Below, in pieces: positions 13,736 to 25,824 of a stretch of DNA of 35,464 bases. Position 1 is the first letter of the stretch, and every line of letters starts with the position of its first letter. This stretch comes from a virus (taxonomy: Duplodnaviria > Caudoviricetes). The stretch covers positions 1 through 35,464 of the IMG/VR virus record IMGVR_UViG_3300032274_000763. One strand, 5' to 3'. The notes below the pieces were generated by a model, which saw nothing but the letters and a program-made list of their open reading frames with translations, was not told where the DNA came from and made no database searches. The position numbers were made by a program, and so were the translations under genes.

Positions 13736-14292
13736 ATGACCTCCGGCGGCGGGTTGCCCGTTTCTAGGTGTCGGTAATCCGGGCGGTGAGCGGTGCCGAT
13801 TTTCGGTGCCGCGCCAAGATAAAGGTCGGCGGGCAGGACCCCGGTTTCATTAAAGATATCGGTGCCCAACCGCAGTTTTTGGCGAAAGCGAACCTCCCAC
13901 ATCATCACACCCGTATTGTCCACGTCGCCGCCGAACAGATTTGCCGCCGTCACATTCTCCGCCCCGAACGCAAAACCGCTGCCCAGCCGATTACCCGGCA
14001 GATGCAGGATCAGGGCATCAACCATATTGGCCGCCGCCTCGTGGCGCGGCAGGGCCTTTACGTCTTTTGTGATGATCGCAGTCCAGAATTCACAGATGAT
14101 CTCGAGTTGATCGTCGGCCTGGAGGGTTACATTCAGCACGTTGCCGAGGGCTATCCGCACGGCAGGCAGTTTTGCGCCAAGTTTTTTGAGCTCCGACAAG
14201 GTGAAGCGACCCCGGTGGGTTTCCACAGACGCCGCCGCAAACAGGGTTTTGAAATCGACAACAATCGCGTTGAGATGGTTGTGCAAGGTCAT
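13732..14292 (-). CDS. Mu gp37-like tail terminator/completion protein
   Basis: Position after virion morphogenesis gene; VETHRGRF..ELK and A.NLF...W.V.F.Q patterns. Confidence 0.7.
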   Translation of the reverse strand: MTLHNHLNAIVVDFKTLFAAASVETHRGRFTLSELKKLGAKLPAVRIALGNVLNVTLQADDQLEIICEFWTAIITKDVKALPRHEAAANMVDALILHLPGNRLGSGFAFGAENVTAANLFGGDVDNTGVMMWEVRFRQKLRLGTDIFNETGVLPADLYLGAAPKIGTAHRPDYRHLETGNPPPEVI

Positions 14293-14795
14293 GACCCGGC
14301 CCCCAGCGCGTTCAGGGCATAGTCTTCGATGGTCCCGATGGCCTGCTGGCGGTCATCTTCCGAAAAACCGATGAACGGGCGGGCCGGGATTTCCACGCGC
14401 TTGACACTTACGAAGGAACCATCCGATGCGCGAAACGTCAGCATGTTGGCGGTTTTGGGCTCAATGATTGCACCGAACTGATGGACGCCAGCCTTGATGT
14501 CATTGGTGCCGATCTCCACCGATGACGGGGAGGGTTTGTGCGTGATGCTGTCAAATAGTCGGCGTGATTCGATCAGTGTTTTGGCGTTCTTCTGGCGTGC
14601 GCGGCCCGAAGGGGGCCAATGGTTCCCGTCCGGGTCCTGACCCAACTCAAACCGCATCTGCGTTGACGTAACCTGATCGCCGCCAATGGTATCCATCAGG
14701 GGCGTCATGTCGTCGAAGGCGGCGGCCACGCGGTCGAGTGCTTCACCGGCCAGATCAGCCCCTTCAAGGTGCATGCGGATGCCAGACTTGCTCAT
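14289..14795 (-). CDS. Phage virion morphogenesis protein (Mu gpG / P2 gpS family)
   Basis: DPDGNHWPP, IGTN..AGVHQFG, IPARPFIG motifs. Confidence 0.9.
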   Translation of the reverse strand: MSKSGIRMHLEGADLAGEALDRVAAAFDDMTPLMDTIGGDQVTSTQMRFELGQDPDGNHWPPSGRARQKNAKTLIESRRLFDSITHKPSPSSVEIGTNDIKAGVHQFGAIIEPKTANMLTFRASDGSFVSVKRVEIPARPFIGFSEDDRQQAIGTIEDYALNALGAGS

Positions 14796-18880: not shown

Positions 18881-18957
18881 TGGTTGCGAGAACAGGATTT
18901 GAGCCTGTGACCTTCTGGTTATGAGCCAGACGAGCTACCGGGCTGCTCTATCCCGCG
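18881..18957 (-). tRNA. tRNA-Met(CAT), initiator (fMet) type, variant
   Basis: CGCGGGATAGAGCAGCCCGGTAGCTCGTCTGGCTCATAACCAGAAGGTCACAGGCTCAAATCCTGTTCTCGCAACCA; full cloverleaf, C1:A72 mismatch, A11:U24 pair, encoded CCA. Confidence 0.93.
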
Positions 18958-18971
18958 TTTGGATGATTGGG

Positions 18972-19017
18972 ACGATGAAGGATGGGCGCACGGATAACCA
19001 CCCTGAAGGATTCAGGG
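18972..19017 (-). promoter_or_regulatory. Putative activator-dependent late promoter for the tRNA and head operon
   Basis: Dyad CCCTGAA-TCC-TTCAGGG, 23-nt spacer, then CATCGT -10-like box; same geometry as the site before the endolysin. Confidence 0.65.
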
Positions 19018-19248
19018 ATGTTTTGATCAATGCGTATGGGGAGGCGGCTGTCCGCGCCAAGGGATGCCGTCGACGAATCGAAGCATCGCCCGAAACAGGT
19101 GTGGATGTCAAACTTGGGGGATCAGGCAGCGCAAAAATATGCCCTGTGGGCGACTTTAACGGGGGGTTAACGGCCTATAGTGGGATTTTAGCCTGTACCA
19201 TGCCTAGATGTAGTGCATCAGGCACCACGGCGCATTTTTCGGGAAACG

Positions 19249-19277
19249 TTGAAAGCGCCGGAAATTTGGCGTAAGAT
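19249..19277 (+). promoter_or_regulatory. Sigma70-type promoter antisense to the MuF 3' end
   Basis: TTGAAA - 17 nt - TAAGAT. Confidence 0.7.
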
Positions 19278-19283
19278 CAGGTT

Positions 19284-19367
19284 ATGGACTGAGGGTCACA
19301 AGGCAGACGCGGTGCCGACCTGAAAACGTCTTTTGGCCGGGTGGCCGCTTCCCACCCAGGCCCCCAT
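19284..19367 (+). ncRNA. Putative small structured RNA downstream of the antisense promoter
   Basis: ATGG/CCAT closing pair; hairpin GGTC-GGCA/TGCC-GACC; hairpin GGCC-GGGTGG/CCACCC-GGCC; complementary loops GCGG and CCGC. Confidence 0.5.
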
Positions 19368-19368
19368 C

Positions 19369-20628
19369 TCATCGTTCGGTATTGTCCAGGTCGCGGGCAT
19401 AGACCAGACGCCCGGCGCGTTGACGCTGTACGTTGCTGAAATCACGGGTCAGAAAAGCGGTCCACGCCTCGAACCGCCCCTCCACCGCCTGGGCAACCAG
19501 AAGCAAGACGCGATCCTTGCCGACGTTGACCGCCTTGATCATCCGCTTTCGCAATTGCACCTGCCCGGTTCCACGATGACGTTCAAACCTGATCCAGATT
19601 TCGTGGGGATTTTCGATCAACTCAGGCAACAAAGATGCCATGGGTGCCCGCTCCAGCGGCATATGTTCGGCCAGCGCCTTGGCGTTAACCAGCAGAGGCG
19701 AGCCATCCGGCAATTCAAATATCTTTTCTTCGCCGCCCAAAGTAGCCTCGATACGGCGCTGCAGATCAACCGTCGACTTCACCTTGGGACCCAGACGGGC
19801 GGCGGGTTTATCCACAGGAATTCGTTCTGGCCGGTTCAGGGTTCGCCATGTGTCGGTGTCCAAAGGCTCCCACGCCTTGGCGCCTTGCGCCCTCCATGCG
19901 GCCATGCTGTTTTCGGAAATTTGCGTGCCCCATGCCGCTTCACCGGGATTGTAGGCGAAACCCGGATCAACGCCCTTCGGCACTGAAACCGATAACGGCC
20001 CGGACGGCGTATTGATGGTCCGGGTTTCCAGCTCGATCTTCGGCGCGGTCTTGGAAACCTTCAGCCCATATCGCTTGAGATCACGAATTGACAACTGAAT
20101 GGCCACACATAGGCAGCCCCAGCCGTTCATGGGGTTGTGGGTTTTCCACCATGGATCATCGACGGGCAGGACGGTGTTGTGCCAGCTTGCATGTTCGGCT
20201 CGGGTATGCGGTCCAAGCACCGATCTGTAGCCGAGATACGGTCGGGTCTTTTTGGTCCGCTGGATTTGTTTCCAGCGCCCGGCCTGCATGCTTTGGCGCA
20301 TGTTGGTGTGATAGATGGTCTTGGACCGCCAGCCGCGCTCTCCCTTATATGACCAGCCGTGCCGGGCGACGATGGTATCGAAGTCCTTTCGGAAATCGGC
20401 CAGTGTGCGACCGTCTTCCATATTCTTCATGAGCGCCTGTTGAAAATCACCCAGCAAGGCATCCGATTGCGCCCCGGCGACGACAAAGGCCCGCGCATGC
20501 ATGCCTTCCCAGAGATCGGTCCAGGCTTGAGTTGGCAACCGCACCTTCTGGCGGAAGGTTTGGATGGCCTCTTCGAAAGGCAGACCCAACCCCAGCGGTT
20601 TAGGTTTCTTAAGTTTCTTGGTCATCAC
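19369..20628 (-). CDS. MuF head morphogenesis protein with C-terminal PBECR2-like nuclease domain
   Basis: LPFEEAI..FRQK, HARAFVVAGA, H..WH..VLPVDDPWW.TH.P.NGWGC.C and GVDPGFAYNPG, then ~120 aa with ENPHEIW, RKRMIK, WTAF and QRAGRLVYAR. Confidence 0.88.
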   Translation of the reverse strand: MMTKKLKKPKPLGLGLPFEEAIQTFRQKVRLPTQAWTDLWEGMHARAFVVAGAQSDALLGDFQQALMKNMEDGRTLADFRKDFDTIVARHGWSYKGERGWRSKTIYHTNMRQSMQAGRWKQIQRTKKTRPYLGYRSVLGPHTRAEHASWHNTVLPVDDPWWKTHNPMNGWGCLCVAIQLSIRDLKRYGLKVSKTAPKIELETRTINTPSGPLSVSVPKGVDPGFAYNPGEAAWGTQISENSMAAWRAQGAKAWEPLDTDTWRTLNRPERIPVDKPAARLGPKVKSTVDLQRRIEATLGGEEKIFELPDGSPLLVNAKALAEHMPLERAPMASLLPELIENPHEIWIRFERHRGTGQVQLRKRMIKAVNVGKDRVLLLVAQAVEGRFEAWTAFLTRDFSNVQRQRAGRLVYARDLDNTER

Positions 20629-24281: not shown

Positions 24282-24503
24282 TCATCCCGCCTTGAAAGCC
24301 GTAGTGATCAGAGCGACGGCAACGCCGACAACGCCGCCCGAGACGGCTCCATTGACGGCAGATTTTTTCTCGACCGACAGCAGCCGGTCATCAATTGACC
24401 CAACGGAGGTTTCAATATTGGAGACGCTCGTCCTGATACCGGTCATCTCACCCTGGAGTCGACCGACCATCTGGTGAAGTTGATTGATTGTTTCTTCACT
24501 CAT
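24282..24503 (-). CDS. Small coiled-coil protein with C-terminal membrane anchor (possible holin or lysis accessory)
   Basis: 73 aa heptad pattern followed by GAVSGGVVGVAVALIT. Confidence 0.7.
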   Translation of the reverse strand: MSEETINQLHQMVGRLQGEMTGIRTSVSNIETSVGSIDDRLLSVEKKSAVNGAVSGGVVGVAVALITTAFKAG

Positions 24504-25309
24504 GAAACGCTACTCCGTTGATGACCTTTAGGGGTGATCAGATTTTCAAGACAGTCGATGTAGCCTCCGATTCTGTGATCGGTAAACGCTCGAACGTTGC
24601 CATGTTTAAAATCCCAATTCAGATAACTTTGCACCAAGCCGGACATCTCTTTCCAGATTCCGGCATCGGCATGAAGTTGCCCGCTGTAATCGAAGAACAG
24701 CGCTGGGCCATCATGGCGGAACCCGAGCGCCAAAAACGGCACCCGAGGCACGATGTCCGCATCATGTACGTAACGACGGTGGATGCAGAAATCGGATAGG
24801 ACGGTCGCGAATTTGGTATTGCCAACGCGGGGTGCGCCAAAGGTCGTTACGTAGTCTGCCAGATCATTGTACCCGGCGAGGATCGCCAGGGCACCGCCGA
24901 GAGAATGACCAACAGCTTCGATCTCAAATCCTCTGTTCCACAGTTTCACGCACCGCGACAGGCAGTGTCCGTAGACGCCGTTAAAGGCCGTTTTAAAACC
25001 GCGATGCACATTGATCCTGTTAACAGGCAATCCGAGCGGTTCTTTTCGAAACTTGAGGTCTGTCAGAATATCGGCAAAGTTCTTCTCGGTCCCCCGGAAT
25101 ACCAGATAGGCTTTTGCCGGTGTTTGCCCCCAGGTGAAATAACCCTGGGTATTCGTGGCCGGGTCGGCAACCCGCTCAACTTCTGAAAATCCAAGCGCCC
25201 ACAACGCGTCGCCGAGGCGGGTTTTATCCCGCTCATAGGCCAAGGCCGCCAACCTGCATTTAAGCAGGTCGACAGCCAAAGCATCTGCGGCGATGGATGT
25301 GCCAGTCAC
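24500..25309 (-). CDS. Class 3 lipase / phospholipase A1-like alpha/beta hydrolase
   Basis: LVFRGTE, VHRGF, GHSLGG, TFGAPRVGN, DIVPRVP and DH..GY: complete Ser-Asp-His triad; GTG start 2 nt after the upstream stop. Confidence 0.92.
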   Translation of the reverse strand: MTGTSIAADALAVDLLKCRLAALAYERDKTRLGDALWALGFSEVERVADPATNTQGYFTWGQTPAKAYLVFRGTEKNFADILTDLKFRKEPLGLPVNRINVHRGFKTAFNGVYGHCLSRCVKLWNRGFEIEAVGHSLGGALAILAGYNDLADYVTTFGAPRVGNTKFATVLSDFCIHRRYVHDADIVPRVPFLALGFRHDGPALFFDYSGQLHADAGIWKEMSGLVQSYLNWDFKHGNVRAFTDHRIGGYIDCLENLITPKGHQRSSVS

Positions 25310-25311
25310 GG

Positions 25312-25824
25312 TTATCCCCGGCGCTGGATTCGGGCGTGGATTTCGCTGGCGGCCTCGACAGCCGCCTCCCATTCTTCCACCGTTGGACCACGCGCCTCGG
25401 CGCTCATGGCGTTCATGGTTCGGCGGATACGCAGGATTGGCTCAGCGGTGACCGCTCCCGTTCGGGCAAGGTGCAAGGCCGCCGATTTCAGATCATAAAA
25501 CGGAAGGCCTTTGATTTCCGAACCCGCCGCCAGCAACCGCAGCTGGTTGCGCACGCTTTTCGCAACCACCTCGAACTTTGCCGACGTCGCCTTGTCCAGC
25601 GCGGCCAGATGCAAGGCGGTGATGGCCCCAAAAGCCGCCCGCTCCAGTTGGGCTGGTGCCTTGGTTTCGGCCAGATTGGCCAGTTCCGTATAGACAAGCA
25701 TCGCCCTGTAGGCGCGTTGATCCTGGGTGGTCGCGTTACCCAGCGTGAAATCACGCGTAGCGGTGCACCCGCTGATCAGGGCCAATGCCGCCGCGACGGC
25801 AATGCAGATTTTAGAAATGTTCAT
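25312..25824 (-). CDS. Lipoprotein in the lysis cassette
   Basis: MNISKICIAVAAALALISGC signal peptide with lipobox; helical mature part; start overlaps the endolysin end. Confidence 0.82.
   Translation of the reverse strand: MNISKICIAVAAALALISGCTATRDFTLGNATTQDQRAYRAMLVYTELANLAETKAPAQLERAAFGAITALHLAALDKATSAKFEVVAKSVRNQLRLLAAGSEIKGLPFYDLKSAALHLARTGAVTAEPILRIRRTMNAMSAEARGPTVEEWEAAVEAASEIHARIQRRG

Follow-up and report, generated by a model that had tools for sequence, protein, structure and literature searches.

A folded small RNA facing the MuF-PBECR2 gene in a Mu-like phage and its relatives

The MuF gene and its surroundings

The window examined in this study, that is, the whole stretch of 35,464 nucleotides, was observed to be a Mu-like transposable phage with all of its main genes on the minus strand, including those for transposase, Gam, GemA, Mor, portal, MuF, protease, capsid and contractile tail, and an identical copy of it (L011) was found in the viral collection. 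The local order runs from portal to MuF and, across a gap of 525 bp, to the protease gene; the G-like gene lies away from MuF, at 14289-14795. Elsewhere in the window, a Lipase_3 gene (24500-25372, minus strand) stands beside the endolysin in the lysis region. The features of the MuF locus are as follows.

18881..18957, minus strand: initiator-type tRNA-Met(CAT) variant (C1.A72, A11-U24, U29-A41, C54), accessory and outside the module
19155..19170, no strand: TTAAC-N-GTTAA dyad before the protease gene, with its sole other window copy at 24981-24997
19249..19277, plus strand: convergent sigma-70-type promoter, TTGAAA-17-TAAGAT, start predicted near 19284, conserved in position in relatives
19284..19366, plus strand: predicted small RNA of about 83 nt, a divergent member of the kissing-loop family, stopping 2 nt short of the MuF stop (ends predicted)
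19306..19312, plus strand: loop of hairpin 1, 7 nt long, with 6 of its 7 positions predicted to pair with loop 2
19345..19351, plus strand: 7-nt loop of hairpin 2, in a hairpin (19335-19362) with almost the same frame as its counterpart in sister locus L305
19369..20628, minus strand: MuF head protein of 419 aa, adjoining the portal gene (profile match)
19399..19755, minus strand: PBECR2 domain, MuF aa 292-410, a predicted BECR-fold RNase (E 5.7e-22, 78.6 bits against a cut-off of 27.1)

The profile search placed the Phage_Mu_F domain at aa 62-177 of MuF, and the C-terminal extension, which the earlier note had expected to be PBECR2, was confirmed as such by a Pfam search, with PBECR2 as the only match in the tail and none to the ToxN, CptN or TenpN families. 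Fusions of MuF with PBECR domains were already described by Iyer et al. 2017 (PMC5512222), the accessible part of which defines the active site by a helix histidine and a late Ser/Thr, terms the domain of Mu itself inactive and predicts that active orthologues are RNases. The window domain keeps His322, Arg327, Thr390 and Arg404, together with 21 of the 22 columns conserved among RNA-bearing relatives, and the predicted-active rule of the same source (helix His plus late-strand Ser/Thr) is satisfied by His322 and Thr390. The AlphaFold model has a pLDDT of 86.9; Foldseek gave no match for it in the PDB at E up to 0.001, and the matches from structural comparison include colicin D (Z 4.6, rmsd 3.4, 83 aligned), the colicin E5-type 3ao9 (Z 4.2), and CDI toxins, RelE and BrnT (Z 3.6-4.1), all of them weak and level with unrelated proteins. 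Because these matches are weak and Foldseek found none, the RNase activity of PBECR2 is a prediction. The accessible text of PMC5512222 further suggests that PBECR domains may spare tRNA and rRNA, so that toxicity is not required.

Two further peculiarities of the MuF genes were noticed. In 8 of 108 distinct MuF sequences (L153, L156, L160, L162, L175, L217, L264 and L317), the first conserved Cys of the NGWG-C-x-C motif is replaced by an in-frame TGA, with coding running on into PBECR2 and, in several of these loci, a hairpin right 3' of the TGA, which makes a candidate selenocysteine codon; the window has Cys at this place. Again, the MuF of L044:1-2295 carries an intein immediately 3' of an NGWNC motif.

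The earlier note had seen no minus-strand ORF of at least 60 aa in the gap 3' of MuF, and this holds, the longest being one of 58 aa over the tRNA, with one of 31 aa at the stop; an ORF of 31 aa is all that lies over the window RNA. An ORF of 117 aa (18921-19274, plus strand) was deemed spurious, since the tRNA falls within its span and neither Pfam nor PHROG gave a match for it. The second copy of the TTAAC-N-GTTAA dyad lies upstream of the packaging genes, and the copy at 19155..19170 is likely a late-promoter activator site for the protease gene, outside the RNA module. With reference to the MuF polymorphic toxins (Jamet et al. 2017, PMC5576092), the window shares the position of MuF after portal and the C-terminal effector but lacks a small downstream immunity ORF; the premise of the earlier note that such toxins usually have an immunity gene rests, in the accessible part of that paper, on 191 recognised toxins, mostly from Firmicutes.

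The RNA family across relatives

For the comparison, 253 loci were examined, of which 242 match the PBECR2 profile and 237 reach the stop, leaving 120 at 90% identity, window phage included. A convergent promoter with at least 8 of 12 consensus matches, at 65-125 nt past the domain end, was recorded in 59 of the 120 on the antisense strand, as compared with 4 on the sense strand and 4 inside the gene, and the antisense distances peak at 80-89 nt. Similarly, the kissing-hairpin detector, designed after the first loci had been viewed, scored at least 48 in 48 of the 120 loci; 3 of 120 in-gene segments and 6 of 360 shuffles reached this score. When 41 of these 48 loci were aligned by sequence only, all 25 pairs of the refined structure were found to change on both sides, the rows having been picked for structure. 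A fairer test was provided by the model R1, which holds only the two outer stems, omits the kissing helix and was run on the 84 non-seed loci: it gave 28 matches, all antisense and 26 of them no more than about 55 nt from the stop. In their alignment, pairing reached 80% in the 7-bp loop-loop helix and 83% in the 3-bp closing helix, neither of which was modelled, and 6 of the 7 loop-loop pairs had changed on both sides.

The fold of the family consists of a 9-bp stem, a short bulge, a stem of 3-4 bp and a 7-nt loop that kisses the 7-nt loop of a second hairpin. The RNA is a single copy, downstream of MuF on the opposite strand; its median distance to the MuF stop is 6.5 nt, most copies have no terminator, and in 62 of 72 copies the predicted fold ends at or past the stop. 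Over these 72 copies, which are related rows, G-U pairs (140) outnumber A-C oppositions (59), favouring the antisense strand. Two scans that started from the RNA, with patterns derived from known members, returned 18 matches, 17 of which face PBECR2 and one of which is cut by the contig end. At the Rfam 15 gathering threshold, no family matched the RNA in the window or in 18 loci. Weak R2 matches inside the MuF genes of L257, L258 and L044 (E 2-4.9), the first of these a locus without the histidine, were not counted as copies. A hidden immunity peptide was also considered and rejected, as no conserved peptide lies over the RNA: the ORFs there, seen in 59 of 95 loci, agree in neither frame nor length, and the core of the RNA has lengths that fall in all three frames. 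An HDV-like ribozyme topology, considered by eye, was set aside on the grounds that covariation shows the second hairpin to be a plain stem.

For promoter and fold, the check on MuF-PBECR2 homologues that the earlier note had proposed came out positive: both recur at the stop, with covariation in addition. Comparison among relatives shows a shared promoter, fold, strand and position for the predicted RNA and its link to PBECR2, and most of the relatives examined carry a folded RNA of about 80 bases where an immunity gene would be expected. A conserved RNA gene very probably exists in the MuF-PBECR2 family.

The window copy is significant only through this comparison. Its promoter has 9 of 12 consensus matches, and the promoter scan of the window alone found 1 such site against 1.1 expected, so that the antisense promoter of the earlier note is present, at 19249-19277, but "near-consensus" overstates a match at chance level that gains significance via relatives only. 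The same applies to the structured element of about 85 nt that the note placed against the MuF stop: alone it is not unusually stable (z -0.25, with 73 of 200 shuffles as good), and its weight comes from the relatives. The lowest-energy window fold is about 9 kcal/mol better for hairpin 1 and its two 7-nt loops pair at 6 of 7 positions, a loop-loop pairing of at least 6 being reached by 11 of 3000 shuffles. The copy was missed by both kissing detectors (the second, stricter one scoring 0) and by R1 at E up to 10. The top match of model R2 in 3 kb was 19298-19370 on the plus strand, at 11.8 bits and E 0.33, in a register in which the loops do not pair and the kiss fails; the Rfam scan of the window returned the tRNA only. 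We read the predicted RNA at 19284-19366 (plus strand) as a divergent family member, with partial decay as the alternative.

Several relatives display variations at this site. A second, partial RNA copy was found about 220 nt from the first (L014:4441-4517, minus strand), and in L272 a BrnT-family RNase gene (L272:2691-3157, minus strand) has been inserted downstream of the RNA promoter, separating the RNA from the MuF stop. The cultured Thermus phage Riverbug (L149; PQ109080.1 15919-16014) has the same layout, with a 31-aa hypothetical gene annotated over the antisense RNA, which is probably a false call. Moreover, opposite other MuF tails (L032/L044, L007/L010/L038, L025, L302, L359), antisense and 70-140 nt past the stop, stand a promoter and a structured RNA of another kind, suggesting that several unrelated RNA folds occupy the same slot after MuF.

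The catalytic histidine and the analogous Campylobacter site

For the association with the active site, the 120 loci were reduced by 3 fragments and by 6 distant PBECR2 types that lack the histidine. Evidence from the RNA itself, the detector or the promoter was recorded in 92 of 104 loci that keep the histidine against none of 7 that lost it; structure evidence alone covers 83 of the 104. In 8 loci lacking the RNA the next gene begins within 10 nt of the MuF stop, and 7 of these 8 have changed His322 or Arg327. In Mu, D3112 and BcepMu, F overlaps G, leaving no gap and no such RNA. Among the 12 His-keeping loci scored without RNA, 3 appear by eye to be misses; L327, L187, L208, L326 and L347 keep the histidine without the RNA, L208, L326 and L347 having changed Arg327 and L327 having changed only Thr to Ser. 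The tree-corrected test of the link gave 2 pairs on the domain tree, which is not significant; on a longer tree, with 104 rows and 5 of the 7 His-less loci retained, it gave 5 pairs (same direction 3.8, opposite 0, median p 0.125), again not significant, both tests being of low power. The RNA appears from these counts to be tied to an intact PBECR2 active site, an association not significant after tree correction.

Expression at an analogous site is on record. In the accessible part of Table S4 of Dugar et al. (PMC3656092, dRNA-seq), an enriched antisense start of Campylobacter jejuni RM1221 lies at the junction of CJE0251 (prophage MuF) and CJE0252, with a step height of 4852 that is the highest among the rows listed and about 8 times the next, and is labelled "putative asRNA". 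Across 12 matching prophage loci the start is located 85-86 nt from the MuF stop, and the RNA folds as a four-way junction, different from the kissing-loop family. The Campylobacter MuF tail has a histidine motif but no PBECR model match, and for CMLP1 no link was found that would make its tail a PBECR2. By analogy, the Campylobacter start shows that a MuF-facing layout is transcribed in a lysogen; owing to the different fold and the missing PBECR match, it speaks for the layout and not for the kissing-loop RNA family itself.

Candidate roles of the RNA and known systems

The earlier note proposed that a virion-delivered RNase is held in check by RNA and/or by the phage tRNA; comparison favours the RNA arm, through recurrence, covariation and absence with loss of the histidine, and gives no support to the tRNA arm. 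We consider the chances about even that the kissing-loop RNA takes the role of a protein immunity factor, binding and inhibiting the predicted RNase domain of MuF. A host-type promoter would produce the RNA both in the lysogen and shortly after the DNA has entered the cell, whereas MuF-PBECR2 would be made late and packaged; the RNA would then shield the producer and the lysogen, and the incoming enzyme would be turned off by RNA once the phage DNA is transcribed. Only tentatively do we extend this to a dead-man switch, in which RNA immunity acts against a virion-delivered RNase, the RNA is abundant in lysogens, and different RNase tails have recruited different folds at the same spot: a cell that destroys the phage DNA would make no RNA and be poisoned, and lysogens would be immune.

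The alternative that survives best, though we hold it to be rather unlikely, is silencing in cis, where the convergent transcript pairs or collides with leaky late mRNA, toxic MuF is kept low in the lysogen and the fold is a stabiliser. The RNA is fully complementary to the region past the MuF stop, lies at a median of 6.5 nt from it and mostly has no terminator, so that run-on antisense transcripts are possible; loss along with the histidine is also predicted, and the Campylobacter start bears its antisense label in the accessible table of PMC3656092. However, the loops are engaged within the molecule and covary with each other, the MuF start lies outside the RNA, a strong hairpin precedes the stop in L182, L188, L204, L209, L253 and L255, and in L272, L306, L248 and L373 the copies stand 370-600 nt away behind inserted DNA.

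The phi29 packaging RNA forms rings through loop-to-loop contacts, and the RNA could likewise be a cofactor or structural partner of MuF, co-packaged and possibly in such rings, or else a dedicated PBECR2 substrate. Its place beside the portal and MuF genes agrees with this, and two self-complementary covarying loops could pair equally well from one molecule to another or inside a single one. Hairpin 2 is followed by a C-Y-A type triplet in 64 of 72 copies, where shuffles give 44.5, a weak signal since 22 of these triplets are the stop codon itself. Nevertheless, Mu, D3112, BcepMu and the 8 loci with abutting genes do without the RNA, and the strong expression at the analogous site in a growing lysogen misfits a late assembly role, making this reading improbable. 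Slightly less credence is given to an independent accessory sRNA, or the leader of a cargo hot spot, that follows MuF by accident: antisense cargo genes do lie behind the RNA in some loci, such as the BrnT-family gene of L272, and D3112 has anti-CRISPR genes just before its protease gene, but most copies have no gene behind them, nearly all RNA-first matches (17 of 18) face PBECR2, and none of the 7 His-less loci kept the RNA.

Bacterial initiator tRNAs are marked by a C1.A72 mismatch, A11-U24, a CAU anticodon, a CCA end, three G-C pairs in the anticodon stem and T54. As the earlier note had it, a variant tRNA-fMet follows MuF (18881-18957, minus strand): the first four marks are present, and the three G-C pairs (U29-A41) and T54 are not, C54 occurring in 2 of 104 viral copies, window phage counted. 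A tRNA within 1.5 kb downstream was detected in 1 of the 120 loci, the window's own phage (113 had at least 600 nt downstream), and sister locus L305 has none; the 29-nt tRNA core was found in 104 viral loci, with MuF nearby in the window phage only. With one locus in 120, the tRNA is not part of the system, and we rejected it as a component. That it serves as a cleavage-resistant replacement for the PBECR2 target is highly improbable, since adjacency in the window phage, the departures U29-A41 and C54 and the weak colicin D and E5 tRNase fold matches are outweighed by this lack of co-occurrence and by evasion of host anticodon nucleases being the published general explanation (accessible text of PMC10264068). 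The tRNA lies directly before the protease gene, the slot in which D3112 has anti-CRISPR genes, and is best read as independent accessory cargo, perhaps directed against host anticodon nucleases, or perhaps slightly decayed. A perfect TTGACA (19106-19111, minus strand) about 150 nt upstream of it, with a weak -10, is possibly its own promoter.

Among known systems, the type III toxin-antitoxins ToxIN, CptIN and TenpIN likewise join an endoribonuclease (predicted here) to a pseudoknotted small RNA. As given in the accessible part of PMC12283969, their RNAs are tandem repeats with a terminator, upstream of the toxin in one operon, with an H-type pseudoknot, whereas the MuF-facing RNA is single, downstream, under its own convergent promoter and folded by a covarying kissing-loop, and its partner is a virion protein of predicted BECR fold. 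The best reading, by analogy, is that the RNA would act as type III antitoxins do on their RNases, though outside that class. Prophage type I systems such as txpA/RatA use convergent antisense RNAs, tail-to-tail, that overlap the toxin mRNA and trigger its decay; the geometry is shared, but the partner here is a structural protein of 419 aa, and the RNA pairs its loops internally. The DUF3800, drum and skipping-rope motifs (Weinberg et al. 2017, accessible part of PMC5737381) are also orphan structured RNAs associated, in either orientation, with a single protein domain; the domain differs, and neither the window RNA nor the 18 loci scanned gave an Rfam match, though the supplement of that paper may bear on novelty. 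The accessible text of PMC5512222 names no partner RNA or immunity factor for MuF-PBECR fusions, and that of bioRxiv 10.64898/2026.08.28.747851 mentions MuF-PBECR with no RNA partner; our search, mainly of openly accessible literature, found no report of a MuF/PBECR2-facing RNA. What is already published is the MuF-PBECR fusion; what is uncatalogued is the RNA family, with more than 70 members.

Phage virion proteins often carry PBECR domains, the literature examined gives no target or inhibitor for them, and many proteobacterial MuF tails have no immunity gene. A compact, covarying RNA that appears tied to an intact active site makes the questions of target and inhibitor testable by a two-part plasmid assay. 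If the proposed inhibition is true, RNA antitoxins would reach beyond the operons of type III defence and act on an effector borne by the virion.
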